From a virus (taxonomy: Duplodnaviria; Caudoviricetes), in the IMG/VR virus record IMGVR_UViG_3300017782_000012, positions 1 through 63,707 of that record: 63,707 bases of DNA. One strand, written 5' to 3'. Below, one piece after another: positions 734 to 63,298 of this stretch. The notes under the pieces are model-generated. The model saw only the letters and a list, made by a program, of their open reading frames with translations. It had not been told where the DNA came from and did no database searches. Within the stretch, counting starts at the first letter, position 1; every line of letters begins with the position of its first letter. Position numbers and translations under genes: made by a program.

Positions 734-739
734 TACACA
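734..739 (-). promoter_or_regulatory. GTGTA motif (putative phage-specific promoter)
   Basis: TGTGTA, 10 nt before ATG 723. Confidence 0.6.
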
Positions 740-794
740 CTAGAAATAAAAAACGATAAAATAATTATATTTTTATCTAAAAAAATGAATTAAA

Positions 795-800
795 AGTGTA
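795..800 (+). promoter_or_regulatory. AGTGTA motif (putative phage-specific promoter)
   Basis: 9 nt before ATG 810. Confidence 0.7.
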
Positions 801-809
801 ACTACCGTT

Positions 810-1118
810 ATGGATCATTGGACAGTCATATCCTCATTAACCTCCGCTATATTCGGAGGAGCTTTATGGGGGTATTTAGGTAAAAGATTGAAGTCAGAAG
901 AGCAGATAAAAAAATTAGATTATCAGACAGAAGCAATCCTGCGTGATAACCTAATTGATAGAGTAGGTAAGTTAGAAGGCTTACTTATAGAGTCCTCTGA
1001 TGAGAAAAAGGCAATGAGAGAACAAATTAGAGAACTAACAGTTCAGGTGGCTGAACTCAAAGTAGAAATCAAATTCCTTAGGGAGGAAAATAAAGAGCTT
1101 AGAGAAGGAAGGGATTAG
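810..1118 (+). CDS. Small membrane-anchored coiled-coil protein (possibly lysis-related)
   Basis: N-terminal hydrophobic segment (VISSLTSAIFGGALWGYL) followed by a heptad-rich coiled coil; AGTGTA motif upstream. Confidence 0.7.
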   Translation: MDHWTVISSLTSAIFGGALWGYLGKRLKSEEQIKKLDYQTEAILRDNLIDRVGKLEGLLIESSDEKKAMREQIRELTVQVAELKVEIKFLREENKELREGRD

Positions 1119-1351
1119 CCCTCCACAGCATAACTCAAGAACTCTGGTCTTCCGGGTTCATGATAATCATTTTTAAATGTAACTATCTTAACTCTTACAC
1201 CATTAACTTCGACATAACCAGACATGAATTGTCTGCCATCTTTAGCTTTCTTGATCCAGTGAGCGCCTACTTTAATATGCTTAGACTTGTCCGAAGAGTT
1301 CTCTTGCTGCTTCGATGAAGTCACGCCTTGCGTTTGATGGGAGTCTTGCAT
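1115..1351 (-). CDS. Small DUF736-like beta-rich protein (start uncertain: 1351, 1357 or 1399)
   Basis: KVGAHWIKKAKDGRQFMSGYVEV...FKND...PEF resembles the GAxW..K...G..Y.S pattern of DUF736-type proteins. Confidence 0.55.
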   Translation of the reverse strand: MQDSHQTQGVTSSKQQENSSDKSKHIKVGAHWIKKAKDGRQFMSGYVEVNGVRVKIVTFKNDYHEPGRPEFLSYAVEG

Positions 1352-1445
1352 ACTCATTTTTGAATCGTCTGTAATTTCGTTTGCTGATCGCTTGCTCATT
1401 TAATAAAAATAGTTTTCTAATTTCTTTTGATTTTTTACCACTCAT
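1281..1445 (-). CDS. Hypothetical 54-aa basic protein missed by the ORF track
   Basis: MSGKKSKEIRKLFLLNEQAISKRNYRRFKNEYARLPSNARRDFIEAARELFGQV*; its ATG overlaps the upstream TGA (ATGA coupling at 1442-1445). Confidence 0.65.
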   Translation of the reverse strand: MSGKKSKEIRKLFLLNEQAISKRNYRRFKNEYARLPSNARRDFIEAARELFGQV

Positions 1446-1903
1446 AATTTTGCTATATAACTCTCTGAATCCTTTATGAATCCAAGTTTATTATAAAGCT
1501 TTTTCACTTTATCTCTACTTGGAGACTTCTCAGAGCATCCCATTTGTATATATTCGAATTTGTTGTCTCTTGCGAACTTTATCGCTGTTGCGAATAATTT
1601 GTATCCCACCTTTGGGTTATCTGATAGCCAGATATATTCTGAAAAGATCTCCCTACCATGCCTTGGTCCTTTATCTTTAATAAATAGAATAGCAGCATCA
1701 TAATTGCCTGAATCATTTAGGTTAGCCCAAACAAAAACATTGAATGCCAACATCTTGTCATGACCAAAAGCTTGCTTGAGAGAATCTACGCCATTAGGTA
1801 ACAGATAATGGTAAGTGTTATCAGGGTTACTTAAATCTAAACAGTCTGAGATATCGTCTGCCGCTTTACAGAATTCTTTAGCATGGATAATCCTCTTGAT
1901 CAT
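1442..1903 (-). CDS. GNAT-fold acetyltransferase-like protein
   Basis: VGYKLFATAIKFAR...KLYNKLGF is a typical GNAT C-terminal pattern. Confidence 0.6.
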   Translation of the reverse strand: MIKRIIHAKEFCKAADDISDCLDLSNPDNTYHYLLPNGVDSLKQAFGHDKMLAFNVFVWANLNDSGNYDAAILFIKDKGPRHGREIFSEYIWLSDNPKVGYKLFATAIKFARDNKFEYIQMGCSEKSPSRDKVKKLYNKLGFIKDSESYIAKL

Positions 1904-2715
1904 TTATGCAAAATAGCGACGAACTTCCTGACTTCTTTCACCGGGATATCAGACCAGCACTTCCAAGTTTTCACCAATTCTGCGTCATCGTCAGATATAA
2001 CTTGATCTCTCCAGAAATCCCTAAGAAGATTTAAAAACTCTTCGAATGTATCTATGCCCTTCTTTGCTCTAAGATGCTTCTGGAGTAGAGCTATAGGAGT
2101 TGTAGCCGCCGCCTCTACAGACTCCACAGTGACACTATTATCAGCCCCTTTAGATTTATCTATCTCATCAGCCCCAACGATATGGACATTCAAGAAGTTC
2201 CTCACACAACGAACAAAAGCTCTATTGCAAGCGATAGTTTCAAGGAATTTAGAAGCAAACGAATCTGTATTATCTAATGTAGCGTTAGCTACGTCTTCAT
2301 AAATAGTATTCACGCCAACACTTTCGTAATTACCTATCCATACTATCCTGCAGGTAGCTTTCACATGACCATGAGCAATATTCTCCGTCTTAAAAGACAC
2401 ACTCTCAAAACCTCGCAACTTGGCCAACTCTTTGATTCCACCAAGCATAATCAATAACTGGTTATCTTTTAATCCTTCCGTAGAGTCTGGGAAAGGTTTA
2501 TTTCTCAAGGTGAACCAATCCCTATTAGGGTAGAGAAAGTCAGGCTTAATCATAGCTCTCCAGTTTATAGAGCCATCTTCATTAAAAATGTAATCTACAT
2601 TCTTTAACAACCCATGATTGTCTCTTTGATAAATGTCAGGGCCAAAGACCTTTTCTTTAGCCGCCTTCTTCACCACTTTCTTAACCGCTTTCTTTGCTAC
2701 TTTTTTCTTGATCAT
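1900..2715 (-). CDS. Putative Rad52/Redbeta-like single-strand annealing protein
   Basis: DVANATLDN...ETIACNRAFVRCVRNFLNV...ADEI resembles the conserved helix of phage SSAPs; Lys/Ala-rich N-terminus. Confidence 0.5.
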   Translation of the reverse strand: MIKKKVAKKAVKKVVKKAAKEKVFGPDIYQRDNHGLLKNVDYIFNEDGSINWRAMIKPDFLYPNRDWFTLRNKPFPDSTEGLKDNQLLIMLGGIKELAKLRGFESVSFKTENIAHGHVKATCRIVWIGNYESVGVNTIYEDVANATLDNTDSFASKFLETIACNRAFVRCVRNFLNVHIVGADEIDKSKGADNSVTVESVEAAATTPIALLQKHLRAKKGIDTFEEFLNLLRDFWRDQVISDDDAELVKTWKCWSDIPVKEVRKFVAILHK

Positions 2716-6200: not shown

Positions 6201-6205
6201 ACACG

Positions 6206-6233
6206 ATTGTATGAATTTCTGAGCTTAATTCAA
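6206..6233 (-). promoter_or_regulatory. Sigma70-like promoter, leaderless geometry
   Basis: TTGAAT-16-TACAAT-5-ATG(6200). Confidence 0.6.
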
Positions 6234-6240
6234 ATTAATA

Positions 6241-6246
6241 AGTGTA
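6241..6246 (+). promoter_or_regulatory. AGTGTA motif
   Basis: 9 nt before ATG 6256. Confidence 0.7.
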
Positions 6247-6255
6247 TATATAAGC

Positions 6256-7501: not shown

Positions 7502-7507
7502 ATTATA
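7502..7507 (-). promoter_or_regulatory. -10 element, leaderless geometry
   Basis: TATAAT-6-ATG(7495), immediately after a terminator hairpin. Confidence 0.5.
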
Positions 7508-10224: not shown

Positions 10225-10230
10225 TACACT
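10225..10230 (-). promoter_or_regulatory. AGTGTA motif
   Basis: 7 and 10 nt before the tandem ATGs at 10217 and 10214. Confidence 0.6.
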
Positions 10231-14141: not shown

Positions 14142-14169
14142 AATATACAGATCTAGAAACGCACGTCAA
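14142..14169 (-). promoter_or_regulatory. Sigma70-like promoter of the polymerase operon
   Basis: TTGACG-16-TATATT-6-GTG(14135). Confidence 0.6.
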
Positions 14170-28979: not shown

Positions 28980-28985
28980 TACACT
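28980..28985 (-). promoter_or_regulatory. AGTGTA motif
   Basis: 12 nt before ATG 28967. Confidence 0.6.
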
Positions 28986-31632: not shown

Positions 31633-31638
31633 TACACT
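31633..31638 (-). promoter_or_regulatory. AGTGTA motif
   Basis: 12 nt before ATG 31620. Confidence 0.5.
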
Positions 31639-31689: not shown

Positions 31690-31717
31690 TTGACACAACT
31701 CTAATTTTTCATATAAT
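31690..31717 (+). promoter_or_regulatory. Consensus sigma70 promoter
   Basis: TTGACA(31690-95)-16-TATAAT(31712-17). Confidence 0.75.
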
Positions 31718-31875: not shown

Positions 31876-32445
31876 GTGCAAACGGATCAAGAACTAATAA
31901 ACAAGGTCAAAGAAGACCAAGACGATCAAAGTCTTATCGAAATAATCAACAGACATTCAGGAGTTTACCATAGTATGGTAGACAAATTTTTATCTGGGGA
32001 CTCAAATAATGCAGAAAGGAACACTCTATTGCAGGACAAGGAATTCACCATTTATAACTCTGTAATGAAATACGACTCTTCAAGAGGTGCTAAATTTCCG
32101 ACATACCTAGCTAACGAAGCTAAGTGGAAATGTTTAAATACCTTGACGAAGAAGAAAAAGTTTAGAGAATGTCCTATAGACGAGGTGACAAAAGAACCTC
32201 ACGATGATGATTATTTAGAAGTTAATCAAAAATCTGAGGTTTTTTCTTTATTTATCAATTTTGTAGAACAAGAAAAAGACCCCAGAATGAAAAAAATTAT
32301 TGACATTAGATACAATAGTTGCTCTAATAAGGTAACTCCTTGGAGAAAGGTAGCTCATTCACTAGGAATGAGCATTCAAGGAGTGATAAACATACACAAC
32401 CGTTGTTTATCAAAGTTCAAAAAACAATCAGAAGATTATGTATAA
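31876..32445 (+). CDS. Sigma-70 family RNA polymerase sigma factor
   Basis: Region 2 YDSSRGAKFPTYL; region 4 HTH TPWRKVAHSLGMSIQGVINIH; TAAAAT 7 nt before the GTG start. Confidence 0.82.
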   Translation: MQTDQELINKVKEDQDDQSLIEIINRHSGVYHSMVDKFLSGDSNNAERNTLLQDKEFTIYNSVMKYDSSRGAKFPTYLANEAKWKCLNTLTKKKKFRECPIDEVTKEPHDDDYLEVNQKSEVFSLFINFVEQEKDPRMKKIIDIRYNSCSNKVTPWRKVAHSLGMSIQGVINIHNRCLSKFKKQSEDYV

Positions 32446-34273: not shown

Positions 34274-34279
34274 TATAAT
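34274..34279 (+). promoter_or_regulatory. -10 element, leaderless geometry
   Basis: TATAAT-5-ATG(34285), immediately after a terminator. Confidence 0.5.
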
Positions 34280-45060: not shown

Positions 45061-45066
45061 TACACT
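45061..45066 (-). promoter_or_regulatory. AGTGTA motif ahead of the TMP
   Basis: 23 nt before ATG 45037, with a Shine-Dalgarno sequence in between. Confidence 0.6.
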
Positions 45067-45070: not shown

Positions 45071-46060
45071 TTACACATCATGACCTGCTAATCTCATCAT
45101 TTGTTTCATATCTAGTTTGCCGCCAGCTTCTTTAGCGGCGTCAGATAATGATATAGAATTACCGCTTTTAGATGTTTTTTTAATATCATCTGCTGTAGCC
45201 CCAAATACAGCCGAAGCGTCTGCATCATCTTTAACGCCTCCATTATTTGAGTCTTTATTCCTTTGGTTCTCTGAAAAAGCCATCAACTTATCTGGATCTT
45301 CTTTTATATTATCAGGAATATCATCAGTATATTGAAAAATGCTATGGAAGACCCTGCCATACATTACTGTTTTCATTTGATATACAGATAAATTTATTAT
45401 AGCTTTACCATAAAAATCCCTAGGGTTTTCACAATTAGCGAGATACATACTAAAAAACGGTTTTAAAACCGCATGTTTGATATTCTCTTCTGACATTTTA
45501 TCTGTCACAGCCCCCAGTCTGATATTCAATTCTGCTATTTCATCAGATTCCAATTCACCGAACTCATCTTCCGTATGGAGGTTCTCTTCAAATTTAAGAT
45601 CCTTAAAAAAACAAAACCTCAACATCTCATCTGCAGATCGTCGGTTAGCGTATGCTTCAGCGGTTAAACCAACAACCTCAGCTCTTTGATTTTTTAATTT
45701 GTATAACTCCAACAGCTTTTCATCAATAGTTTTCTGTAGAGCTTCTTTTTTCGAGGGTAGAAATAAAGATTGTTTAGTTTTTTTTAAATTTTGAGTCTCA
45801 GTTTCTAACGAAGCTATTTCCATATCGTCAGACTCCTCCCATAAACCCTCTTCTTTTACATAATCAGACCTTTCTTCTTCAGTATCTATACCTTTAGAGA
45901 TCGCTAGATCTTTGTAGCGCTCGTAGTATGTATTGAGATACTTCTGATCTCTTAAGTTTATATGTTTAACGAATACGTCCCGACCTTTGAAAGTCGAGAC
46001 GCTATACCCGTCAAAAACTTCTCCTATTAGAGAAATATAGAACTCGTCACTATAGCTCAC
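45071..46060 (-). CDS. Putative tail assembly chaperone
   Basis: Immediately upstream of the TMP; acidic and helical; resembles its upstream neighbour. Confidence 0.5.
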   Translation of the reverse strand: MSYSDEFYISLIGEVFDGYSVSTFKGRDVFVKHINLRDQKYLNTYYERYKDLAISKGIDTEEERSDYVKEEGLWEESDDMEIASLETETQNLKKTKQSLFLPSKKEALQKTIDEKLLELYKLKNQRAEVVGLTAEAYANRRSADEMLRFCFFKDLKFEENLHTEDEFGELESDEIAELNIRLGAVTDKMSEENIKHAVLKPFFSMYLANCENPRDFYGKAIINLSVYQMKTVMYGRVFHSIFQYTDDIPDNIKEDPDKLMAFSENQRNKDSNNGGVKDDADASAVFGATADDIKKTSKSGNSISLSDAAKEAGGKLDMKQMMRLAGHDV

Positions 46061-47125: not shown

Positions 47126-47131
47126 AGTGTA
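47126..47131 (+). promoter_or_regulatory. AGTGTA motif
   Basis: 9 nt before ATG 47141. Confidence 0.7.
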
Positions 47132-50717: not shown

Positions 50718-50726
50718 GCTTTATAT

Positions 50727-50732
50727 TACACT
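50727..50732 (-). promoter_or_regulatory. AGTGTA motif
   Basis: 9 nt before ATG 50717. Confidence 0.7.
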
Positions 50733-50739
50733 ATTTATT

Positions 50740-51072: not shown

Positions 51073-51081
51073 ACAGTATTA

Positions 51082-51087
51082 TACACT
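51082..51087 (-). promoter_or_regulatory. AGTGTA motif
   Basis: 9 nt before ATG 51072. Confidence 0.7.
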
Positions 51088-51105
51088 TAATGAGGATAAA
51101 TAAAC

Positions 51106-51139
51106 AAAAAAAAGAGAGCCGCCCCGGAGGACGACTCTC
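51106..51139 (-). terminator. Intrinsic terminator after the major capsid gene
   Basis: Minus strand GAGAGTCGTCC-TCCG-GGGCGGCTCTC-T8. Confidence 0.85.
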
Positions 51140-51157
51140 AAATCAAGTTTTGCTATA

Positions 51158-52264: not shown

Positions 52265-52283
52265 TTATGTGATTCTTTCTATA

Positions 52284-52904: not shown

Positions 52905-52924
52905 AGTATTATATTTTGTTTAAG

Positions 52925-54406: not shown

Positions 54407-54407
54407 T

Positions 54408-54845: not shown

Positions 54846-56811
54846 GACTGTGGTATAATATTGCTGATGGATAAACTTCTAGGTTATGCTTATTAGCTAC
54901 ACTTAAAACTTCATTCATTACATTTAATTCTTCGATAAGTTCGAAATTTTCTATACAAGCTTCTAAGGTTTGATTCCAATTTTGCTTGTCTGTAGAGCAT
55001 ATAATCGACTCGCAAAGTTTCGCGACCATCTCTTCTTGTTGCTCATTTAAAGTTTCTCCAAATTTTTCTTTAGCGCTGTCTGTGGCTAAAGAATTAAAAG
55101 CTTCTATAGAGTAAATAGTATTCTGGATATCGCTTCTGGAATATTCAGCATTAGACACCTTATCTTTCTCTACTGTTGTAGTGCCATGAGGTCTACCTGC
55201 AGCTTCAGGGGTTTGAGACTTTTCAGAGATTTCGTCTTCTATCATTGGAACACCTCCAACGATAGGGTTATAGAAGCCTTCTTTACGCTGTTCGATAAAC
55301 CTGCTTTGTGCAGGAGCTATATCTTCGGCATTTGGGAACTGACCATTGTGGAACATCTGCATACCCTGTTGAGGCGTAAGAATTCCAAGCTCCATAAGGC
55401 GAGTAGATACACGCATAAGCTGCGTTTCATCTCTCATATCAATATCCTTCATGGTTGCGGTCGGATATGATTTGAAACCTAAACTATTAGCAATTCTTTT
55501 TATTTCTCTTTGTAGGAAATCATTTAAGAAACAACTCCTAGCCTCTTTGAGTCGGTCGATGAATATTTGAGCTTTGACTTGAGTAGAATTATATTTTTCA
55601 TCCCCAACAACAATATTCTGAAGACCTTGCTTGATATCCTCATTGAGTATTTGATATTTAGCTGGCCCTAGAACTTTATTAAGGTCTGGGATAACAAAAT
55701 CAGCTTTTGTCGTATGGTCAGAAACTAAGACTCGGCCAACACTCTCATTTTTAAATAAATGTTGCATGGCGTTGATGTTATTAGCATTAACGCCTCCTTT
55801 ATCAGGTTCAGCACCCATAGTGATAAGAAGTATAACATTCTCCACGGTGCGAGTAATTGCTTGGTCCATCTTCTTAAGCTCAAGCTTAGCGTTGATGTCT
55901 TCTAGGACTGGATAACCAAATGGTATAGCAAATGGCTCATAATCTTGTTTCTTGTAGAATGAAAAGCTCAGACGCTTAGGATCTAACTCAACTTTAATAC
56001 CATCCGTATAATAAGAGCCATCTTTCACAAGCTTCTTCATTTCAGGATCTAAAGCATCATAAACCAATTGATCTTCCTCTGTAGAGGGGTTTTGCAGCCT
56101 AGATAACTCATATTCAGAAAGCACCTTTTCATATGCCCCGACATTGAATGTTGTAGCCCTTTTAGATACGATATCGAAAGGGTTAAGGACAACATACTTT
56201 ACTGGTATTTTGTTTGCTGTCGGGTTGATAGCTCCAACCTGATTCATTAACCGGGCGTAATCTTCAGCTTCGAACTCTCCGTCGAACCTATAGAGAAAGA
56301 TGTTACCGCTCCGGTAGTACTCTCGAAAATACTGATCTTTTAAATTTTGTAAGTTTATCCGCTTGAAAAACTGCTGGAAGAACTCCCTGCTTTTTTTAGA
56401 GCCACCCTCTAGGTAAATCTCTGTGTTCGCGAACTCAGACATAACATCTATCGCATTTCTGAACACCGCGACATTAGCATAAGCTTTTTGACAAAGTTCA
56501 ATACCTTCCCGGACATTCACTCCATCTCCGGCATACTCATAAGGTAGCAACCCTTTACGGATACTAGAAAACCTATCTATAGTTGTCCTCATAGCTGAAG
56601 AGTTAACTCTAGCGGAATTAGTAGTCCCCGCCCTGTTAGTCCTAGCTTTAGACACTTTTTTATAGGAAGCGTCAGAGGTGTAAAAAGATTCACCTAATAG
56701 CTCTGGAGTGTAAGACTCTTCAGTATTTCGGGCTTGAGATAATTGCTGCAAACTATCGTTGCTTTGGAATTTTTTCCAGTAATCAGATTTTTTTGTATAC
56801 TTCCTAGCCAT
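54835..56811 (-). CDS. Portal protein
   Basis: 658 aa directly after TerL; FRNAIDVMSEF, EYYRSGNIF, KKQDYEPFAIP. Confidence 0.78.
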   Translation of the reverse strand: MARKYTKKSDYWKKFQSNDSLQQLSQARNTEESYTPELLGESFYTSDASYKKVSKARTNRAGTTNSARVNSSAMRTTIDRFSSIRKGLLPYEYAGDGVNVREGIELCQKAYANVAVFRNAIDVMSEFANTEIYLEGGSKKSREFFQQFFKRINLQNLKDQYFREYYRSGNIFLYRFDGEFEAEDYARLMNQVGAINPTANKIPVKYVVLNPFDIVSKRATTFNVGAYEKVLSEYELSRLQNPSTEEDQLVYDALDPEMKKLVKDGSYYTDGIKVELDPKRLSFSFYKKQDYEPFAIPFGYPVLEDINAKLELKKMDQAITRTVENVILLITMGAEPDKGGVNANNINAMQHLFKNESVGRVLVSDHTTKADFVIPDLNKVLGPAKYQILNEDIKQGLQNIVVGDEKYNSTQVKAQIFIDRLKEARSCFLNDFLQREIKRIANSLGFKSYPTATMKDIDMRDETQLMRVSTRLMELGILTPQQGMQMFHNGQFPNAEDIAPAQSRFIEQRKEGFYNPIVGGVPMIEDEISEKSQTPEAAGRPHGTTTVEKDKVSNAEYSRSDIQNTIYSIEAFNSLATDSAKEKFGETLNEQQEEMVAKLCESIICSTDKQNWNQTLEACIENFELIEELNVMNEVLSVANKHNLEVYPSAILYHSHEN

Positions 56812-56824
56812 TGTATAATTATAT

Positions 56825-56830
56825 TACACC
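56825..56830 (-). promoter_or_regulatory. GTGTA motif
   Basis: GGTGTA, 13 nt before ATG 56811. Confidence 0.55.
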
Positions 56831-56856
56831 AAAAGTAACTTTCTAACTTTTAAAAG

Positions 56857-58722
56857 TTAAGAAATAAACATTGGGGTGAAAGTTTCTGTAACTGAAGACC
56901 CATTATCCTCTAACATATCGAAGTAAACATTCATGGCCCAGTTACCTAGAACCAAGGCAGAATATGAATCTTTCCGGGCTTTATCGGCTCCCCGCTGCTT
57001 CCTTAAGTTGGGCGGGAGATCAAAACTCTGTGTCCCTTGTGGAGATGTGGTAACCTGCACTAAAGCACATTGTACTTTCATAAGATCCATCATATCTCTC
57101 TGATGCTCTACAAAATCGATCATCTTAGCTCCCTTATTCTTTTCTTCCGCATCTTGATTTCTCAAGAACTTTAAATTCTCAATGGGGATATTAGCTTTTC
57201 TCTGTAAGTTGTAGTTCTCATCCATAGCTGAACCAGCGAAGAATATCCGTTTATGATCAAATGCAGATTGCAAGCTCTCATTAGCGAAACGAATCCATGT
57301 AGAACTAGGCTTCCTTAAGAACACATATTTTCTAGAAGATTTATCTATTGAGTTCTTTAACTGCCTAATCCCTTTCTGATAATCTTTCGGGTTATCTAAT
57401 TCAGCTTCTACAGTATCTATTTTTAATTTTTCTTTTTTAAATATGCCGCTTTCCTTACACGCGCTCAAAAACTGGACACCTCCATTGTAGTCACCTACAA
57501 CCATCTCAATATTGAAGTTAGTTAACAGATATGCCATATATCTTATGTGTGTTTGTAAGCTAGAGCCAGAAACAGCATAGCTATGCACTACAGTACCCTT
57601 TCTAGTGTCTGGGTGGACTTTTATTACAAGTATAGCAAAATCATCTGAGCTTTCGCTCTCAGACCAAGAAGGGTCAAATGCCAATATGTATTTCGAGGAG
57701 GGGTCTCCAATGACCTCAACACATTGACCTTCTCCATCAGGAATAGTACAAGAAGCCATTTTACTAACTTTGAAGTAACCAGAACTATCATCTGTAAACA
57801 CAGCTCCAAACTCTCGATCAAACTGAGATTGACTCATTGTTGATTTAGATTGATTAATCAAATTTTGATCATATAGCTGGTCAGGGGCGCAATCATAACT
57901 AAAATGCATAATCACACGATGAGCGCCGTCTTGCTTGTTCTCATTAATGATTAAGCTCTCATATTGTTGATAAAGCTTATAAAGGTATTCAAATTTGTAG
58001 GATGCAGAAGATAAACCAATAATTTTGTTATTTGGCCAACGAGTCCTTTCGCTTTCCTCCATCTCCCCCTCTTCGATCATCTTCGTCTCTATATCATACG
58101 TTTCTTGGCGCTCAGTTGGATTCTCAACAACAGATAGGAATGGCATGATAACCTCGTTGAAAATCTTCTCAGGCATCAGGAGAAGCTCATCTATGATCAT
58201 TCTCTGGAATCGGAAGCCTCGCAGCTTTTCTCCATCACCCAAAGGCAACGCTCTGATACTACTAGTGCCTATTTCCATAACCCATTCATCATTCATTTTA
58301 GATGTCCTAGTTATGCATTGAGATAGAAACTCTGCTTTAGGGCTTTTAGCAATATCCTCAATCTTTTTGAAAATCATCTTAGCCTGACGAAAAGACTTGG
58401 ATATGATACCTATCTGAACTCCTTGGTTCATAATAGCATCTAAGATAGCAAATACAGCAGTTGAGAATGATTTACTCATGCCTCGACTCCAGATTCCTAA
58501 AAAGTAGTCTGTTTCCATCATAGATTTGATGGCCATATGCTGAAAGGGAAATAACTTCACACCTGTGAATAACTCACAAGTGAATGAAGGATTATCCCTA
58601 AGAAATTTATATAGAAGGAGTTTAGCCTCTCCTTCTTCGATATAACCTTCTTTTGAAAGAACCTCTTGGTTTACTTTCTTGAATTTCTTGTAGAGTTCCT
58701 GATTCCCGTCTATCCAAGCCAT
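56857..58722 (-). CDS. terL: Terminase large subunit
   Basis: LFPFQ, SRGMSKS Walker A, LRGFR..MIIDE Walker B, LSSA, LAFDPS and KDSYSA RNase H-like nuclease motifs. Confidence 0.88.
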   Translation of the reverse strand: MAWIDGNQELYKKFKKVNQEVLSKEGYIEEGEAKLLLYKFLRDNPSFTCELFTGVKLFPFQHMAIKSMMETDYFLGIWSRGMSKSFSTAVFAILDAIMNQGVQIGIISKSFRQAKMIFKKIEDIAKSPKAEFLSQCITRTSKMNDEWVMEIGTSSIRALPLGDGEKLRGFRFQRMIIDELLLMPEKIFNEVIMPFLSVVENPTERQETYDIETKMIEEGEMEESERTRWPNNKIIGLSSASYKFEYLYKLYQQYESLIINENKQDGAHRVIMHFSYDCAPDQLYDQNLINQSKSTMSQSQFDREFGAVFTDDSSGYFKVSKMASCTIPDGEGQCVEVIGDPSSKYILAFDPSWSESESSDDFAILVIKVHPDTRKGTVVHSYAVSGSSLQTHIRYMAYLLTNFNIEMVVGDYNGGVQFLSACKESGIFKKEKLKIDTVEAELDNPKDYQKGIRQLKNSIDKSSRKYVFLRKPSSTWIRFANESLQSAFDHKRIFFAGSAMDENYNLQRKANIPIENLKFLRNQDAEEKNKGAKMIDFVEHQRDMMDLMKVQCALVQVTTSPQGTQSFDLPPNLRKQRGADKARKDSYSALVLGNWAMNVYFDMLEDNGSSVTETFTPMFIS

Positions 58723-59638
58723 TTTTTTCTAATTCTTTTTCCCAAAAATATTGTAAATCAACTTTCCAAAGTTTTTTACCACAGTGGAGGATCTTGGGTA
58801 TTAATTCCTCACTATCTTTCCTAGAACCACTGAACACAAATTGACAGCAGTCACTAAATTGTTCCTCAATAGCCCGAAGGCGACTGAAAACATACTTCAT
58901 ATTAAATTTTTTATAAACTGACTGATTTATTTTAAAAAGATCTCTATAATCAGCCTCAACAACAATAAATAAATAACACCCCAAACTCTTACACCGTTCT
59001 ATCTCTCTCAGAAACCTATCATAACCATTTGTCACTGTAGCTGCAAAGTCACTAAAGGATTTACGTTCAACGTGAGTATATGTATAGTTTTGTGGGGGCA
59101 GAGTATAATCACCAAAGTCTAATTTATGAATAAGAGAGTTTTCGAAAGACAAAGGTTTATTCTCCCTAGTATCGATCCATATTTCCGCATTATTACAATT
59201 TTCAAAAAACTCCTTACACAAATTTTTATTATATGCTGGCTCAACCCCTAACGTATCACACAATGCCGTGTAACTGCCGAAAAGTTTCTTGATTATGTCT
59301 AACGTTGGCCAATCCCCAGTCTTGAGGTATAAACTAGATGGACCGTGTCTTAGGTTCTTTTTCTCTAGTCGTTTTTGAAATTTCTCCAATACATATTTTT
59401 TTGTTTCATCTTCTGGGGCTTGAAGACACCAACGCCTCATATTTTCAGGACTATTGAAGTCCATAGAAAAATACTGTTTCGCATTTTTAAATTCTATAGG
59501 CTTCTCTGTAAGTTTGTCAAAACGTGGGTAATGTTTGACGTAATACTCACCAAGGAGCATATTATGCGCTTTAATGTGCATATGAAGCCCTCTCTGCGAT
59601 TCAAAGGTCTTTCCGCACTCTTGACATTCAAATTGCAT
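58622..59638 (-). CDS. C2H2 zinc finger plus ERCC4/XPF-family nuclease
   Basis: CQECGKTF...LHMHIKAH; IWIDTRE, LDFGDY, VERKSFSDF, RFLREIER. Confidence 0.82.
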   Translation of the reverse strand: MQFECQECGKTFESQRGLHMHIKAHNMLLGEYYVKHYPRFDKLTEKPIEFKNAKQYFSMDFNSPENMRRWCLQAPEDETKKYVLEKFQKRLEKKNLRHGPSSLYLKTGDWPTLDIIKKLFGSYTALCDTLGVEPAYNKNLCKEFFENCNNAEIWIDTRENKPLSFENSLIHKLDFGDYTLPPQNYTYTHVERKSFSDFAATVTNGYDRFLREIERCKSLGCYLFIVVEADYRDLFKINQSVYKKFNMKYVFSRLRAIEEQFSDCCQFVFSGSRKDSEELIPKILHCGKKLWKVDLQYFWEKELEKNGLDRRESGTLQEIQESKPRGSFKRRLYRRRRG

Positions 59639-60677
59639 CGTCTTTGCTTATACCTAAGATTCTAGCCTTCCACTCTGCCATACCCTCCATCCGCTCGGCT
59701 TCTTCTTTAATTAATTTTTTCTGCATCTCTGCCATACGAACCATGTTCTTTCGTTCCTCCTCTTCTTGGAACATATGAACGATAGCTAAAAACGAAGCGT
59801 TGTCTTTTTGGTTCTTCTTCATGCGTTCCGCACGGTCACCCTGAAGTTTTTTCGTCAAATTCTCAATGCGGGTCTCACATTGATGATATTCTTGTGATTT
59901 AGCTTTGATAATCTCAGCTAGCCGGACAGTCATTTCAGTTTGATCGTCTGCGACATCGAACATATCATTAAGTTTATTAAGATGCGCTGAAACAACCTCT
60001 AAGTTAATAACTTCTTTACATACGTTTAAGTATAGATTGAGTTCGTCAGCGGTCAAATCGGGCTTATCCCAACTTAATCGGATGAACTCCTGTTCGAACA
60101 ACTCCCTGTCTTGCTTGTTTAAATAATTATTGATGATTTTTAAAAATCTGCTATTGGACAAGTTGATGCGAAGTTTCTCTATACAAATTTGTTTTTGCCT
60201 ATTTAATTTACTTTCTTCTAGACCTATACCTGTAGCATCATTTATTTTCTTTACGATCCTACTAGCGCTTTTCGGTGATGAATAATCATTGACCGCGCCA
60301 GACTCTTGCGATGGAACAAAATCAGGGTTTATCTCATGAATATAAGAAAGCACTGTTCTCTGCTCATTACTTAAAGGTTTTATTTGTTTTTGGGGGAATA
60401 TAAGCTTCGCTATCTCAAGGGAGGACAAACCTTCTTGCGCTTGATCCAATATGAATTCTTTTTGTTGATCTGTTAAGTCTATCTTGTCTGTTGGCGCTCT
60501 GGCTGTTGTTTTATAATCAATATCATTCTCAATCAAAAACTTTCTCACAGCTCTCCCCTCTTTGTTGCGGCCATCTAATTTATCATCTTTGAAGCATTTT
60601 TGTGTCAAATCATTAAGGTCCAACATATCTTTCGCGTTTTCCTCCAAAAATTTCTGCTGTTCTTTTGTTAATTTCAT
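59628..60677 (-). CDS. Hypothetical HTH/coiled-coil protein (candidate terminase small subunit)
   Basis: Repeated LTxxQxxF(L/I) helices, GLSSLEIAKLIF HTH-like segment, C-terminal coiled coil; upstream of TerL. Confidence 0.5.
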   Translation of the reverse strand: MKLTKEQQKFLEENAKDMLDLNDLTQKCFKDDKLDGRNKEGRAVRKFLIENDIDYKTTARAPTDKIDLTDQQKEFILDQAQEGLSSLEIAKLIFPQKQIKPLSNEQRTVLSYIHEINPDFVPSQESGAVNDYSSPKSASRIVKKINDATGIGLEESKLNRQKQICIEKLRINLSNSRFLKIINNYLNKQDRELFEQEFIRLSWDKPDLTADELNLYLNVCKEVINLEVVSAHLNKLNDMFDVADDQTEMTVRLAEIIKAKSQEYHQCETRIENLTKKLQGDRAERMKKNQKDNASFLAIVHMFQEEEERKNMVRMAEMQKKLIKEEAERMEGMAEWKARILGISKDDAI

Positions 60678-61354
60678 TTTTTCGGGTCTTCTTGTTTCAA
60701 TATCGATATCGCCATTTCTTGAAATTTATTCTTTAGATTCTTAACCTGACGGTATCCCGTCTTGCGGGTCGCGTCTGTGATCTTGTATCCCATGAAAATA
60801 GCAATATCCTCCTCAGAACATTCCTCAAAGTATAACATATGATATGCAGTAAAATGTTTTTCGCTAAGTCTGTTTCGCATTTCCTGATTCAACTTGTCAA
60901 TGTGGCCATCATAATCAAAATGAGAATTACACCTAACATTGCCGATTGAGTCAGTTTCATCCAAACTCCCGGCTGTTTTAAGCTCTAAGCCATATTTTTT
61001 CTTTTTTGACCATTTAGCAAAATCTTTACAGCTAACATCTTGATTACCACTCTTTGTTTTGGCGCACAACTCATCTCTAGCGTGTATGCATGTAGAACAA
61101 GGCTTTATATAGGAACCATAATGATTCCTTATAAGATTCCACATCCTATTGGTAATAACTCGACTCAACCAAGGCTCAAGAGGTCTCGTCTGATCCCACA
61201 TGTGCCACTTCTGGGCAATATGAGATTTTACAACCTGCTCTACGTCTTCAAAATCAAACCACTTAATTGCATCTAAGCGCCATCTAGATTTTTGCTTTTT
61301 TACAGCTAGGTCTATTAGATCTTGGAAGTCTTCATATTTTTTCTTTTCGTCCAT
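60674..61354 (-). CDS. Sigma-70-like factor with a Cys4 insert
   Basis: FEDVEQ...WDQTRPLEPWLSRVITNRMWNLIR (region 2); CSTC..C..C insert; SEEDIAIFMGY (region 4). Confidence 0.72.
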   Translation of the reverse strand: MDEKKKYEDFQDLIDLAVKKQKSRWRLDAIKWFDFEDVEQVVKSHIAQKWHMWDQTRPLEPWLSRVITNRMWNLIRNHYGSYIKPCSTCIHARDELCAKTKSGNQDVSCKDFAKWSKKKKYGLELKTAGSLDETDSIGNVRCNSHFDYDGHIDKLNQEMRNRLSEKHFTAYHMLYFEECSEEDIAIFMGYKITDATRKTGYRQVKNLKNKFQEMAISILKQEDPKK

Positions 61355-61674
61355 TAAGGATTGGAAGTAAATTCATCTAAGCCATATGAACCCTTCCCCT
61401 TAAAGTCTGGCGGTGTGTTTTGTCCTGCTAGAGAACCAATAGTAAAAGATTTATTATTATAAATTTCAACATCTAGACCCCGAATATCAGGGACAAATTC
61501 AGCATCAGTCTCATCATCAGAAACTGCAGATGCCTTTTTTCGAGCTGGCTCAGCAACTCTTGCGTTAGATTGACCTACAGAACCAAAATTTGCTCCGCAT
61601 TTGGAACAAAAATTAGGTTTTGCAAAATTATATTCAATCTTAACCCCACAATCAGAACAAAACATGTGACTCAT
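61354..61674 (-). CDS. Zinc-ribbon protein
   Basis: FCSDCG...PNFCSKCG; TATAAT 7 nt before ATG. Confidence 0.75.
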   Translation of the reverse strand: MSHMFCSDCGVKIEYNFAKPNFCSKCGANFGSVGQSNARVAEPARKKASAVSDDETDAEFVPDIRGLDVEIYNNKSFTIGSLAGQNTPPDFKGKGSYGLDEFTSNP

Positions 61675-61705
61675 CTCATTTATTATATTAGTAATGTATA
61701 TTTAT

Positions 61706-61711
61706 TACACT
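61706..61711 (-). promoter_or_regulatory. AGTGTA motif
   Basis: In the intergenic gap, 31 nt before ATG 61674. Confidence 0.45.
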
Positions 61712-61715
61712 ATTT

Positions 61716-62432
61716 TTAGCTTTCTAGCTTTTTAATAATGAATTTTAGTATTTTACTACGCACAATATCGCTTTCATTGAAGCTAAATGTATGAATCCCC
61801 ATGTCTTCCGACTCATCATCATCGAATTTGTTGAACATTGGGTTGAAACCGCTCTTTCCGTTGATATCACTTTGGAAAAAGTCACCGCCTATGATGATTT
61901 TACTGTCTTCTCCTATGCGAGTGATCAAAGTAGTTAACTCTTTCAAAGTAAAGTTCTGCGCTTCATCAGCGAAAACCAACTTATTCTGCCAACTAGCGCC
62001 CCGAAGGAAGTTTATTGGGACTGCAGATATCTTTCCTTTTTGTTTTAAGAAGGTCGCATCGCCGGGAGCGACTATTTCTTCCATTTTATCATAGAGAGGA
62101 CCAAGAAATGGGTCGAACTTCTCTGTAATATCTCCGGGTAGACTACCCAATCCCCTATCCGCACTCTCAGCGATACTTCGGACATATAAAATATCCTTAC
62201 TGAAGTCCTCTTCCATGAGTTTCAACATGCCATATAAGGACATGTAAGTCTTTGAGCTTCCCGCAGGACCAGACACGAAGATTATTTTCGAATCTTCACT
62301 CAATACTAACTCTAGAAACCGCTTTTGTTTGGGGCTGAATCTAAATCTCCTCTTATTAAACTTAATTGATCTCTCAAAATCCGCCATTAAGTCAAATGGA
62401 GCCTTCTCTTTCACCGCTTGTTTTCGGGCCAT
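61716..62432 (-). CDS. phoH: PhoH-family ATPase
   Basis: GPAGSSKT, LGSLPG, FLRGAS, DEAQN, TRIGE, GDFFQSD, DIVRS. Confidence 0.93.
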   Translation of the reverse strand: MARKQAVKEKAPFDLMADFERSIKFNKRRFRFSPKQKRFLELVLSEDSKIIFVSGPAGSSKTYMSLYGMLKLMEEDFSKDILYVRSIAESADRGLGSLPGDITEKFDPFLGPLYDKMEEIVAPGDATFLKQKGKISAVPINFLRGASWQNKLVFADEAQNFTLKELTTLITRIGEDSKIIIGGDFFQSDINGKSGFNPMFNKFDDDESEDMGIHTFSFNESDIVRSKILKFIIKKLES

Positions 62433-62445
62433 ATGTATTTATATA

Positions 62446-62451
62446 TACACT
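62446..62451 (-). promoter_or_regulatory. AGTGTA motif
   Basis: 13 nt before ATG 62432. Confidence 0.6.
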
Positions 62452-62455
62452 TATT

Positions 62456-63283
62456 TTAGAGAATTATCTCTCTAATTGTTGCTCTAGTCGATAAAGTGTC
62501 TCCTCCCTGTACAGAATACGACTCGCTGACCACATGCGCTCCAGCATTTACCAATAAATCAAAATCAACACTATTATAATTCAAACCCGCATTACTTACA
62601 TCATCTAACATCACCCCGAAATTACTCGTTAGCTTATTTCCACTAAAATCAATAAGAGAATTCAATCCTGTAGATTCCACGTCCATACTAACTTCCACCC
62701 CATCCACTAAATGACTCGACGCATATTGAGACCCTAATGTATAAACAGGCGTCCTGCTGAAAGTTTTATTATATGTTAAATTATTTACTAAATTACTAGA
62801 TACCACATTACCCGCATTAACCAACGTACAATCATGACCATAGATGATATCTGAAGTATTTAACGCATTATCAACATTGCTAGACACTAAACCTGTAATA
62901 CCACCCGCGCTTGGACTAAAACTTGTAAAACTTACGCTGCCCACCACGGGTTCAAAGGGTTTCACTGTCAAATTATAGCTATCAATAAAACAACCGCTGT
63001 ATTTATTGCCGCCAATATCCAAAAGCATTTCATTCGCGCCTGTATTATGATAATTATCAAACAAGAAGTCACACCCCGAATAATTATCCCCATCACTTCT
63101 CAACAAGAAATCAATGGAGATCTTACATTCCACATCCCCTATAAACCTCAATTGGTCGTCAGCGTTTATATTCGCGGCTAATTGCTTTTTCTCTTCATTT
63201 TGTGTACTAAAATCCACAGATACTCTCGTCCCCATCATAGGACTAGCCTCATCCACTACCACCGCCATATTCCGATATGTCAT
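62456..63283 (-). CDS. Tail-tube-like protein (dispersed paralog)
   Basis: CFIDSYNLTV.PF.PV, LTYNKTFSRTPVYTLGS and VVSESYSV resemble the other tube-like genes. Confidence 0.55.
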   Translation of the reverse strand: MTYRNMAVVVDEASPMMGTRVSVDFSTQNEEKKQLAANINADDQLRFIGDVECKISIDFLLRSDGDNYSGCDFLFDNYHNTGANEMLLDIGGNKYSGCFIDSYNLTVKPFEPVVGSVSFTSFSPSAGGITGLVSSNVDNALNTSDIIYGHDCTLVNAGNVVSSNLVNNLTYNKTFSRTPVYTLGSQYASSHLVDGVEVSMDVESTGLNSLIDFSGNKLTSNFGVMLDDVSNAGLNYNSVDFDLLVNAGAHVVSESYSVQGGDTLSTRATIREIIL

Positions 63284-63292
63284 ATCTTATGT

Positions 63293-63298
63293 TACACT
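63293..63298 (-). promoter_or_regulatory. AGTGTA motif
   Basis: 9 nt before ATG 63283. Confidence 0.7.

Follow-up and report, generated by a model that had tools for sequence, protein, structure and literature searches.

Among described phage systems, the one that appears closest by analogy to the element reported here is that of phiEco32, in which gp36 recognizes tAATGTAtA, a lone element whose starts lie 6 to 8 (6 to 9) bp downstream (PMC8948821). The T4 late box TATAAATA, which the first-pass annotation had offered as the parallel, makes with gp55 a looser analogue. Thermus phage P23-45 provides a further point of reference: its middle and late promoters are of the extended -10 class and escape gp39 (PMC3950348). 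The DNA analyzed here, a 63,707-nt window from an uncultured marine tailed phage, carries before gene starts a box whose conserved core is GTGTA (consensus aGTGTAa); the A/T run that comes after it is poor in G. We put at about 0.72 the probability that GTGTA is the sole recognition element of phage-specific middle and late promoters that start ~10 nt downstream and are brought into use by a phage-sigma switch. The phiEco32 spacing puts a start 8 to 11 nt after GTA, and in this phage the ATG begins at the 10th nucleotide after GTGTA. In an extended -10 promoter, TGn precedes the hexamer, whereas in the GTGTA box the TG directly abuts TA and the initial G varies no more than the TG does.

The presence of a GTGTA box before starts is real. 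All 14 sites listed in the first-pass annotation are there, with the coordinates, the downstream-gene strand and the distances it gave (d, the nucleotides between box end and ATG); 12 read AGTGTA, one TGTGTA and one GGTGTA, and d is exactly 9 at six of them (795, 6241, 47126, 50727, 51082 and 63293). The enrichment check against background that it had proposed revealed enrichment by strand and by position both in the window and in G001, an 89.7-kb relative that we analyzed separately. Within the 35 nt upstream of the 67 gene starts in the window, sense-strand AGTGTA occurs 10 times against 0.39 expected and GTGTA 13 times against 1.26, and AGTGTA is the top word upstream of starts in an unbiased 6-mer test of the window (Bonferroni 7e-8). 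Counted over the whole window and both strands, however, AGTGTA is at the level of shuffled sequence (25 copies versus 25.01 expected), so its excess is positional rather than global. An ATG opening at least 50 codons follows at 5 to 14 nt in 10 of these 25 copies, compared with 159 of 3628 copies of 89 other permutations of AGTGTA. Inside window genes we saw no depletion of GTGTA (sense, 26 versus 28.6 expected; antisense, 29 versus 31.4), and these ~55 gene-internal copies imply that the 5-mer alone is insufficient and that context must matter; the outcome of a flank-PWM cross-validation owes part of its strength to the high A/T content between genes. In 67 non-redundant site clusters (sites less than 62% identical to each other), every column before -7, any -35-like one included, stays within 0.2 bit. 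Indirect though converging evidence of this kind supports the earlier description of a single-box element, acting at the DNA level, and would give it the -10 position.

The boxes precede genes along the length of the window. The TGTGTA box at 734..739 (-) lies 10 nt from the ATG at 723, where a putative protein gene runs off the window, and the AGTGTA boxes at 795..800 (+) and 6241..6246 (+) lie 9 nt from ATGs at 810 and 6256 that open ORFs of 102 and 59 aa. AGTGTA at 10225..10230 (-) overlaps the stop codon of a DnaE-like polymerase gene and is 7 nt from ATG 10217 and 10 nt from ATG 10214 of a Clp-type AAA+ ATPase. The gene of a DUF5824 protein at the head of a sugar-metabolism block has AGTGTA at 28980..28985 (-), 12 nt from ATG 28967 (d = 11 in the G001 ortholog), and nrdB has it at 31633..31638 (-), 12 nt from ATG 31620 (d = 13 in G001). 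An nrdB start at the upstream in-frame ATG 31647, which has a GGAGG, was considered and ruled out by the G001 ortholog; since that ortholog uses the same Met with the frame closed upstream, the start at 31620 and its box stand. The tape measure gene combines AGTGTA at 45061..45066 (-), 23 nt from ATG 45037, with a tandem TGTGTA box 11 nt upstream at 45072..45077 (-), and its leader contains the Shine-Dalgarno (SD) sequence AAGGAG, as first noted; the G001 counterpart also follows a tandem pair. Farther along are AGTGTA boxes, each 9 nt from its ATG, at 47126..47131 (+; ATG 47141, in a 43-nt divergent gap; GTGTA in 6/6 orthologous upstream regions), 50727..50732 (-; ATG 50717; 12/12) and 51082..51087 (-; ATG 51072; 8/8), the last directly 3' of a terminator-like hairpin at 51139-51114. 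GGTGTA at 56825..56830 (-) is 13 nt from ATG 56811 of a 658-aa protein that is a putative portal by position only (14/14 orthologs). AGTGTA at 61706..61711 (-) is 31 nt from ATG 61674 of a zinc-ribbon protein (11/12), whose gene opens an operon that continues through the sigma-like gene 60674-61354 to terminase. The remaining AGTGTA boxes, at 62446..62451 (-) and 63293..63298 (-), are 13 nt from ATG 62432 of PhoH and 9 nt from ATG 63283 of a 275-aa protein (10/10). Boxes occupy divergent gaps of 43, 55 and 86 nt, and they stand where a promoter would be needed, right after terminator-like hairpins and in such gaps. The target functions first assigned hold for tape measure, Clp-type ATPase and PhoH, which have PHROGs or Pfam matches; portal, neck, adaptor and tube paralog gave no family match in those searches and are placed by position and size only. 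Because nrdB (31620), the Clp-type ATPase (10217), PhoH (62432) and the operon with the second sigma-like gene (61674) also follow a box, the original term late was too narrow, and the class is better described as non-early, that is, middle and late.

Conservation follows the box rather than its surroundings. In orthologous upstream regions, picked by the downstream protein only, GTGTA occurs in 64 of 65 unique cases (6/6, 12/12, 8/8, 14/14, 11/12, 3/3 and 10/10), with box columns invariant and flanks variable; among orthologs of the 63283 gene the upstream flanks are wholly different and GTGTA is kept. GTGTAA is the top enriched word upstream of starts in G001 (15 versus 0.83 expected; Bonferroni 8e-11), and GTGTA likewise persists in a contig with a second sigma-like protein of only 62% identity. 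At loci around homologs of the first sigma-like protein (down to 47-53% identity), 64 of 435 GTGTA copies fall at d 8-14, compared with 170 of 28624 copies of control permutations; in percentages, 8.5-14.7% for GTGTA and 0.6-0.8% for 29 controls.

Spacing suggests where transcripts may begin. Among 77 non-redundant GTGTAW sites, the distance to the ATG has a floor at 9 nt (1 site at d = 8, 12 at 9, 10 at 10, 12 at 11 and 13 at 13, with a tail to 40), and d is below 8 at one site only, the gene there starting ATGATG. The base just before the ATG is a pyrimidine at 13/13 d = 9 sites but at 19/54 other genes (Fisher 1.4e-5). A pyrimidine at -1 and a purine at +1 are an established transcription start-site preference, and the pyrimidine at d = 9 sites fits a start at the A of the ATG. 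SD cores are absent from the 51 sites at d 8-14 and present in 6/21 at d of at least 17 (Fisher 3.5e-4); they occur only where a leader exists, so SD use tracks leader length. In the window as a whole, a 4-mer SD core at -18..-4 occurs in just 5/67 genes, and the 39 tightly coupled internal genes that lack a box have one in 3/39 cases, compared with 12% by chance. The near-leaderless reading of the first-pass annotation is supported as to placement, the spacing floor and the pyrimidine putting the predicted start on the ATG itself or 1-4 nt ahead of it, and stays a prediction as to the mRNA.

We propose that GTGTA sits in the -10 region, where its TA would replace T-12/A-11 of the -10 hexamer and the abutting GTG would give specificity. 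Transcription would start ~10 nt past the box; with a 9-nt spacer this point falls on the first base of the ATG, and translation of the leading gene in each unit would begin on an mRNA that has either no leader or one of 1-4 nt. Genes farther down would be translated through stop/start coupling in a genome nearly without SD sequences. One point against this placement is that a start on the first base of the ATG would leave the TA of a d = 9 box at -11/-10 instead of -12/-11, a base closer than in the early promoters. Early genes would have canonical -35/-10 promoters, likewise spaced for leaderless mRNA. In G001, TTGnnn-N16-18-TAnnnT-N4-8-ATG occurs 20 times versus 3.5 in shuffles (maximum 8), and 12 of the 20 cluster before small early-type ORFs, mostly as TATACT, 6 nt and ATG; TTGnnn-N17-TATACT before these early genes keeps the register that the GTGTA box has relative to the ATG, and a stricter TATAnT/N5-7 subset has a pyrimidine before the ATG in 14/14. 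The window has elements of this kind at 6206..6233 (-; TTGAAT-N16-TACAAT, 5 nt to ATG 6200, divergent partner of the 6241 box), 14142..14169 (-; TTGACG-N16-TATATT, 6 nt to GTG 14135) and 63490..63495 (+; TATACT, 6 nt to ATG 63502, the early-type geometry found 12 times in G001). Plain TATAAT occurs at 7502..7507 (-), 6 nt from ATG 7495 and directly after a terminator-like hairpin at 7541-7510, a host-type leaderless geometry without GTG; at 34274..34279 (+), 5 nt from ATG 34285 after a hairpin and T run; and at 61682..61687 (-), 7 nt from ATG 61674, downstream of the 61706 box and conserved in relatives, where it is a candidate second, host-type leaderless promoter.

The switch to GTGTA promoters would most likely be made by a phage-encoded sigma-70-family protein. 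As first proposed, two divergent members of this family are encoded, on the evidence of profile matches and, for the first, of fold. The first (189 aa; 31876..32445, +) has a two-domain sigma2 plus sigma4 fold: its AF2 model (pLDDT 85.5) retrieved sigma factors in 50/50 Foldseek and 50/50 VIA-align matches among those listed, with Z 11.5 and rmsd 2.2 A over 93 residues for sigma2 and Z 10.1 and rmsd 1.7 A over 71 residues for sigma4. The second (226 aa; 60674..61354, -) has an ECF-like region 2 and a C-terminal helix-turn-helix. Family matches, all below curated cut-offs, are to TIGR02937 in 29/36 members for the first, and to NF009165 in 36/36 and Pfam Sigma70_r2 in 30/36 for the second. Sequence searches found no similarity of either to phiEco32 gp36 or any cultured phage protein. 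Both have a sigma4-like domain, yet the boxes show no -35 consensus. Our first-choice candidate reader is the 189-aa protein, whose gene lies ~150 nt behind TTGACA-N16-TATAAT at 31690..31717 (+), a candidate early, host-type promoter whose boxes G001 keeps with different flanks.

Other readings have to account for the same pattern. That it has no function and simply follows from the A/T-rich composition between genes, or from the duplication of a few intergenic segments, might be suggested by the chance-level total of AGTGTA, the A/T-rich intergenic DNA and the redundancy of many loci in relatives, which repeat the same sites. This reading is contradicted: GTGTA is not A/T-rich and is nevertheless the top enriched word in two separately analyzed genomes, control permutations stay far below it, and the box is invariant among flanks that diverge and, across the 67 clusters, are mutually unrelated. 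We also regard as improbable that GUGUA acts in RNA, as a non-SD translation signal, a translational-regulator site, or an endonuclease site whose processing frees short-leader mRNAs from polycistronic transcripts. The narrow, sense-only placement before starts would suit such a role, the scarcity of SD sequences might lead one to expect another initiation signal, and several boxes lie within operon-like runs, on or just past the preceding stop (10225-10230; 45061-45066). Of 24 RNA runs found, available in assembled form and therefore silent on transcript ends, the four compared showed the phage to be present, and an RNA-library contig, 61235-61883, crosses the 61706 box, which would be read-through there if the contig is RNA. 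The distances, however, show a hard floor and a long tail rather than a two-sided optimum, and SD cores are added in long leaders and never in short ones. That the coupled internal genes manage with neither box nor SD argues against a ribosome signal of general use. Moreover, boxes after terminators or in 43-86 nt divergent gaps have no other conserved upstream element to serve as promoter, the early canonical promoters share the register to the ATG, and the pyrimidine at d = 9 fits a start site.

A transcriptional alternative, unlikely but of more weight, is that the host primary sigma reads the box as an unusual -35-independent, extended -10-like promoter and that the phage does no more than shift the preference, for example through a small protein that, like P23-45 gp39, keeps -35 elements from being recognized, with the phage sigmas serving other promoters. 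The P23-45 promoters that escape gp39 are a precedent (PMC3950348). The TA of the box and the A/T run after it resemble a TAnnnT hexamer, the box has no -35 element, and early promoters of G001 carry a TGTGn extension before TATACT, so contacts to an upstream TG are probably made by the host enzyme. The abutting TG and the equally invariant first G are nevertheless unlike an extended -10 TGn, and GTGTA is not enriched upstream of genes in a co-binned Flavobacteriaceae-labelled MAG, which may not be the host (7 versus 9.8 expected; 400 kb, 379 genes). The box also persists at loci with homologs of the first sigma-like protein, and two phage sigma genes, one behind a conserved host-type promoter, are the usual layout of a sigma cascade. 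On the preferred reading, in which a phage sigma factor would recognize GTGTA as a single-element promoter, the box most likely adds a new sequence to a type of phage gene control that is already known.

AGTGTA is peculiar in the window for its location and not for its abundance. Counted on both strands it occurs 25 times, against 25.01 in dinucleotide shuffles, with no overall excess; in the 35 nt 5′ of start codons, on the sense strand, it occurs 10 times against 0.39 expected and ranks first of the 4096 6-mers (Bonferroni 7e-8), and the shorter GTGTA occurs 13 times against 1.26 expected. These counts use a list of 67 ORFs with adjusted starts, covering 97.6% of the window. Independently of any gene list, 10 of the 25 AGTGTA copies are followed at 5 to 14 nt by an ATG that opens at least 50 codons, compared with 159 of 3628 copies of the 89 other permutations. 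The observation is real and strongly non-random. The first-pass annotation had listed 14 such sites and read them as a candidate phage-specific late promoter; all 14 lie at the coordinates, on the downstream-gene strand and at the distances it gave (AGTGTA in 12, TGTGTA once at 734-739 and GGTGTA once at 56825-56830), and its expectation of a positional and strand excess over background is borne out in the window for both AGTGTA and GTGTA. The distance that it gave for the box at 31633-31638 puts the start of nrdB at ATG 31620; a rival in-frame ATG at 31647 has GGAGG before it. The nrdB ortholog in a relative starts at the Met of ATG 31620 and the frame is closed upstream, so this start is right, and the box chose the true start over a decoy resembling a Shine-Dalgarno (SD) sequence. 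Placement of the 31633-31638 site inside the nrdB coding sequence is ruled out by the same ortholog start.

Boxes stand at the heads of gene blocks. They occupy the divergent gaps of 86 nt (724-809), 55 nt (6201-6255) and 43 nt (47098-47140), and one at 51087-51082 follows a terminator-like hairpin at 51139-51114. The genes behind them include the tape measure and putative portal genes (and, in G001, an 89,658-base relative phage, the tail-fibre operon) and also nucleotide-metabolism and other non-structural genes (nrdB, Clp ATPase, PhoH and DUF5824), and no sequence difference was seen between the boxes of structural and non-structural genes. The term late is thus too narrow: since the box serves both kinds of gene, its class is non-early. 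Within window genes GTGTA is not avoided (26 sense copies against 28.6 and 29 antisense copies against 31.4 in synonymous-codon shuffles), from which it follows that the five bases alone cannot suffice; in G001, with cruder gene calls, depletion was confined to the antisense strand (35 against 61.3). A matrix built from the flanks only of 13 G001 sites ranked the upstream sites of the window at the top of its 77 GTGTA copies (ranks 1-4, 8-11, 15, 16 and on; Mann-Whitney 1.7e-5), an effect that owes part to the A/T-richness of intergenic DNA.

Several individual sites deserve separate mention. On the 5′ side of the tape measure gene there are two tandem GTGTA boxes 11 nt apart (45061-45077, minus strand); G001 has two in the same place, 12 nt apart, and C38, a more distant phage contig, has one. 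GGTGTA at 36464-36469 (minus strand) lies within the end of the preceding gene, 19 nt before ATG 36444, with AGGA at SD distance after it, and G001 and other relatives conserve it. It could represent an internal promoter whose short leader includes an SD, or just conserved coding sequence. A copy of GTGTA with a high flank score, at 47573-47577 (minus strand), is antisense within gene 47141-47605. It precedes the minus-strand gene 46810-47097 by about 480 nt, and the 43-nt gap of that gene is itself box-free, making a long-leader or antisense promoter possible. Finally, the gene list leaves a 314-nt gap (54521-54834), but a 145-aa ORF (54408-54845, minus strand) spans it and shares sequence with the end of the putative portal gene. 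This ORF is probably a real gene, and the true start of gene 52925-54520 may lie further downstream.

The box is conserved well beyond the window. The viral contig collection holds 232 relatives of the terminase and 446 of sigma-1, a 189-aa protein of the window. Among 80 terminase loci kept (78-100% identity), a start lies 5-14 nt after AGTGTA in 35 of 179 copies at 78-81% identity (control words 922/17539), 10 of 43 at 87-88% (275/4825), 24 of 119 at 90-94% (747/15642) and 15 of 47 at 99-100% (191/4164), an excess of about 4- to 7-fold in every class. Among 75 loci carrying sigma-1 homologs, examined in three identity classes with 29 control permutations, GTGTA has a start at 8-14 nt in 37/292 copies at 67-72% identity, 17/201 at 57-62% and 64/435 at 47-53%, compared with 0.6-0.8% for the controls. 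To keep the motif from biasing their choice, orthologous upstream regions were picked solely by the N-terminal part of the protein encoded downstream, and GTGTA occurs in 64 of the 65 unique 50-mers found upstream of seven genes (6/6, 12/12, 8/8, 14/14, 11/12, 3/3 and 10/10). In gene-by-gene alignments GTGTA is invariant and the preceding base variable; the fully conserved upstream columns coincide with the box and the flanks vary. Independent analysis of G001, whose terminase is 78% identical, placed GTGTAA first among upstream 6-mers (15 copies, 0.83 expected; Bonferroni 8e-11), and in C38 (sigma-2 62% identical, 41% G+C) the box precedes the putative portal, tape measure and other genes.

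Sixty-seven site clusters (<62% mutual identity) give the consensus a(47/67)-GTGTA-a(56/67), with six G-poor, A/T-rich positions after it. In these clusters every column upstream of -7 stays at or below 0.2 bit, and hence there is no -35-like box. Two promoters carry a direct repeat, AAGYTA-GA-AAGYTA, as AAAAGTTAGAAAGT at 56838-56851 and AAAAGCTAGAAAGC at 61719-61732 (both minus strand). The repeats share an offset, ending 7 nt before GTGTA, front the putative portal gene and the zinc-ribbon/sigma-2/terminase operon, respectively, and are kept in relatives. As a -35-like element, AAGYTRGAARGY shows no excess in the window (13 against 7.7 expected, with 13 reached in 7 of 100 shuffles), and only these two promoters have it; the repeat may belong to a promoter subclass, acting in its -35 region or as the binding site of a regulator.

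The setting in which the box operates is essentially SD-free. An SD core (a 4-mer at -18 to -4) precedes 5 of 67 window genes. At 39 of 57 same-strand junctions the genes overlap or lie no more than 10 nt apart (ten of ATGA type, six of TAATG type), and the downstream genes at these junctions have an SD core in 3 of 39 cases, against 12% in random 15-nt windows. Expression seems to rest on leaderless first genes and translational coupling. A second kind of promoter shares this arrangement. In G001 there are 20 instances of TTGnnn-N16-18-TAnnnT-N4-8-ATG, where shuffles give 3.5 (at most 8), and 12 of the 20 lie on the plus strand at 37.5-43.4 kb before small unannotated ORFs. The clustered promoters are nearly all TATACT, 6 nt, ATG, with TTGnnn-N16-17 spacing, and several have a TGTGn extension before TATACT; in a stricter TATAnT/N5-7 subset the base before ATG is a pyrimidine in 14 of 14. 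The many small early ORFs gave no family matches, and the region looks like one for early host takeover; the right end of the window (63490-63504) seems to enter its equivalent. In the window itself, plain -10 hexamers stand 5-7 nt before box-free starts, two of them directly after terminator-like hairpins (7502-7507, minus strand, and 34274-34279, plus strand), with others at 6206-6233, 14142-14169, 63490-63495 and 61682-61687.

We regard a promoter as the best-supported reading of the GTGTA box, with a probability of about 0.7. Five observations point to a -10-region promoter and are poorly accommodated by a signal acting in RNA. The spacer between box and ATG has a floor: only 1 of 77 non-redundant GTGTAW sites has fewer than 8 nt, and this site belongs to the Clp gene, which starts ATGATG and whose second ATG gives 10. 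Above the floor the counts are 1 at 8 nt, 12 at 9, 10 at 10, 12 at 11 and 13 at 13; a sparse tail extends as far as 40 nt, and the mode is 9-11. Such a pile-up at the shortest permitted spacer would follow if the transcription start were barred from coding sequence. Transcription starts prefer a pyrimidine at -1 and a purine at +1, and at a spacer of 9 nt the base before ATG is a pyrimidine in 13 of 13 cases from the window, G001 and C38, compared with 19 of 54 other genes (Fisher 1.4e-5). None of the 51 sites with spacers of 8-14 nt has an SD core, against 6 of 21 with spacers of at least 17 nt (Fisher 3.5e-4), including the tape measure gene in the window (AAGGAG), in G001 and in C38. The canonical promoters share the register of the box to ATG, which favors a promoter over an RNA element. 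Lastly, the accepted signature of leaderless genes is described as TAnnnT with its first T about 12 nt before the start (PMC3160421, PMC6028130), and the T of the box falls 11-12 nt before ATG at spacers of 9-10 nt.

The start-associated sequences of Cluster K mycobacteriophages likewise are a conserved word at a near-fixed short distance 5′ of many starts in one phage lineage; they contain a Shine-Dalgarno and are thought to act in translation. The window box differs from them in lacking an SD and in a geometry that suits a promoter. We consider an RNA-level role very unlikely. A promoter might instead be read by the primary sigma factor of the host, which would use -35-less promoters after a phage protein disables -35 recognition. 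Thermus phage P23-45 provides the precedent: its extended -10 middle and late promoters are reported to be favored once gp39 blocks -35 recognition, with host sigma A as the reader and TGn plus a hexamer as the motif (PMC3950348). Both are -35-less, non-early classes that contrast with -10/-35 promoters used earlier, and in both a TG-type word extends the -10 element on its upstream side. The differences are that TG abuts TA in the window and that the window phage has sigma-like proteins of its own. GTG-TA is accordingly not an extended -10 element of the TGnTATAAT kind, in which TG at -15/-14 is one base from the hexamer, and the occurrence in G001 of early TGTGn-TATACT beside GTG-TA boxes indicates that two registers coexist in one genome. 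Reading by the host sigma appears unlikely to us, less so than an RNA-level signal.

Relatives of the phage are present in marine RNA libraries. Parts of it occur as assembled contigs (Logan) in 24 RNA-type runs, and contigs from four RNA runs were mapped to the window; the deepest cover 45.9-47.1 and 51.2-54.6 kb, one spans 52190-54587, and one crosses the box at 61706. The mapped contigs revealed neither transcript starts nor transcript ends.

The GTGTA promoters could be read by a sigma factor encoded by the phage itself. The first-pass annotation had named two proteins as sigma factors, sigma-1 (31876-32445, plus strand) and the 226-aa sigma-2 (60674-61354, minus strand), and sigma-1 does belong to the sigma-70 family and sigma-2 probably does, both in very divergent form. 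Contigs of 100-140 kb from the phage family carry members of both sigma families. Sigma-1 matches TIGR02937 over residues 21-184 (E 1.7e-6, under the curated cut-off). In its family 29 of 36 members match TIGR02937 and 28 of 36 the SigK model, the latter sub-threshold and reflecting a weak similarity common to FliA, sigma-32 and ECF models, and a family profile searched against the PDB returned 13 matches, all sigma factors (E 0.026-0.84). In an AlphaFold (AF2) model of sigma-1 (pLDDT 85.5), residues 1-97 superpose on the sigma2 domain of ShbA (Z 11.5, rmsd 2.2 Å over 93 residues) and residues 114-189 on region 4 of sigma H (Z 10.1, rmsd 1.7 Å over 71 residues), and with each aligner 50 of 50 structures among the matches listed were sigma factors. 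The predicted fold thus clearly has a sigma2 domain (-10 recognition and core binding) and a helix-turn-helix sigma4 domain. For sigma-2, sequence comparison matched NF009165 in 36 of 36 family members, TIGR02937 in 29 of 36 and Pfam Sigma70_r2 in 30 of 36 (best 9e-7), plus a C-terminal helix-turn-helix-like match, all under curated cut-offs. Kinship between the two was not detectable (hhalign probability 0.5%), and tblastn against 50,697 phage records found no cultured-phage homolog of either at E up to 0.01.

The arrangement of their genes suggests how the two could be linked. A perfect TTGACA-N16-TATAAT lies about 150 nt upstream of the sigma-1 start (31690-31875, plus strand) and is kept in G001 among different flanks, and the sigma-2 operon is headed by a GTGTA box and a plain TATAAT. 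In the simplest cascade, host-type early promoters would drive sigma-1, which would then activate the GTGTA promoters, that of the sigma-2 operon among them. The sigma-1 leader is itself a long one within an otherwise leaderless genome and contains, at 31808-31833, an operator-like A/T palindrome of 26 nt; in G001 the same promoter boxes are followed by a leader of about 115 nt with a different sequence.

The closest parallel that we found is coliphage phiEco32. Its middle and late promoters are described as having one conserved element, tAATGTAtA, with AATGTA centred at -11.5 and transcription beginning 6-8 or 6-9 bp past it. Their reader is reported to be gp36, a two-domain protein distantly homologous to sigma factors, with gp79 as helper, and the early genes to use sigma-70 promoters (PMC12276001, PMC8948821); a helper of the gp79 type is said to displace the host sigma and stabilize the phage sigma. 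Both systems have a single element at about -10 with a TGTA core (tAATGTAtA or AATGTA versus aGTGTAa) and no -35 consensus, the position in the window being judged from the ATG, and in both the element serves middle and late genes, with early genes on host sigma-70-type promoters. A similar start distance would be compatible with the geometry, as the A of ATG is the 10th base after GTGTA and 8-11 would be expected, and the candidate reader here, like gp36, would be a small, very divergent, two-domain phage-encoded sigma. They differ in the second base, which is G in the window and A in phiEco32, the first G being invariant in the window family; in the placement of the window box against the start codon, such that the mRNAs would be leaderless; and in the absence of detectable sequence similarity between the window sigmas and gp36, no gp36 chain appearing among the PDB sequence matches of either at E up to 1-10. 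The window phage is moreover an uncultured marine one whose system is known from sequence alone, and its tape-measure protein indicates a long tail. The GTGTA box adds a new consensus to a type of phage control that is already known. We found no paper describing a GTGTA phage promoter, which, with most subscription papers outside the coverage of the search, is not proof of novelty.

T4, to which the first-pass annotation had likened the box, is a looser analogue. T4 late promoters have TATAAATA at -10, read with gp33 and the sliding clamp by gp55, a sigma with region 2 only that is activated by the clamp, and late mRNAs carry leaders with an SD. What survives of that comparison is the use of one -10-region box, independent of any -35 element, to define a temporal class of phage genes; the box sequence and the predicted sigma4 domain of sigma-1 set the window apart, and its box is not of T4 type. 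Among cellular promoters, the -10 elements of the Bacillus subtilis sporulation factors sigma K and sigma E, given as GCATANNNTA and KCATANANTN (PMC3416734, Table 4), likewise have a short specificity word of 2-3 nt directly before the TA of a TAnnnT core, CA there and GTG in the window, but have -35 elements. By its sequence geometry, a -10 box at leaderless distance without an SD, the window would have the leaderless first-gene architecture of "group C" genomes: a TAnnnT-like box has its first T 11-12 nt before ATG, first genes lack an SD, and both early TATACT plus 6 and GTGTA plus 9 fit the register. Internal genes of group C genomes are said to use ribosome-binding sites (PMC3160421, PMC6028130), whereas those of the window also lack an SD (3/39) and are coupled stop to start, and the window box has a phage-specific GTG extension.

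Megablast of 45000-63707 found no cultured DNA relative; the terminase is at most 26.5% identical to those of Bacillus phages and the DnaE-like polymerase stays below 30% identity, and by these comparisons neither a cultured relative nor a host was found. The window has no tRNA genes and no Rfam matches. Metagenome-assembled genome (MAG) labels name Flavobacteriaceae twice (the bin G002 and one NCBI name) and Verrucomicrobiales once (the bin G003). Contigs C8, C20, C58 and C96 of G002 and C38 of G003 carry the phage box-plus-start words, the spacer of the ortholog of gene 47141 was found on C96, 3 of 10 pattern matches in G003 fall on C38, and both bins hold several phage-like contigs. The labels probably reflect binning of phage contigs with cellular genomes, and such fragments in cellular bins make them weak evidence of host. 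In 400 kb of G002, GTGTA is not enriched upstream of 379 genes (7 against 9.8 expected), no clear leaderless peak was found, and SD cores are commoner (106/379) than in the phage. Neighbors of the Clp ATPase in the Atlas mix Bacillota and Bacteroidota. The Bacteroidota promoter consensus is TTTG / TAnnTTTG, with TAnnTTTG as the -7 element. The early promoters of G001, TATACTwm after TTGnnn-N16-17, are not of this type. MAG labels notwithstanding, the difference between TTGACA/TATACT and the Bacteroidota consensus argues against a host sigma of the Bacteroidota type. A literature search on marine leaderless hosts, with most subscription papers again outside its coverage, returned nothing relevant.

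The box provides a sequence-only rule for true start codons, as for nrdB at 31620 over the SD-preceded ATG, and marks operon heads and the split between early and non-early genes in a widespread family of uncultured marine phages. If a compact divergent sigma does read the one-piece GTGTA promoter, phages would offer two independent examples of such a pair, the other being that of phiEco32 gp36. More broadly, and at odds that we place somewhat below even, GTGTA and a compact phage sigma may form a module shared by many abundant uncultured marine lineages (~100-200 kb) and coupled to wholly SD-free expression, which could consist of leaderless first genes in both temporal classes with followers coupled stop to start. 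If so, the box would show, across thousands of marine viral contigs, where genes start, which of them head operons and to which temporal class they belong, and the common marine hosts of these phages would translate leaderless mRNA efficiently. The main value of the finding is as a practical key to annotation and as a clue to the host: essentially SD-free phage expression points to a host with efficient leaderless initiation, and thereby reduces the number of host candidates for a group without a cultured member.
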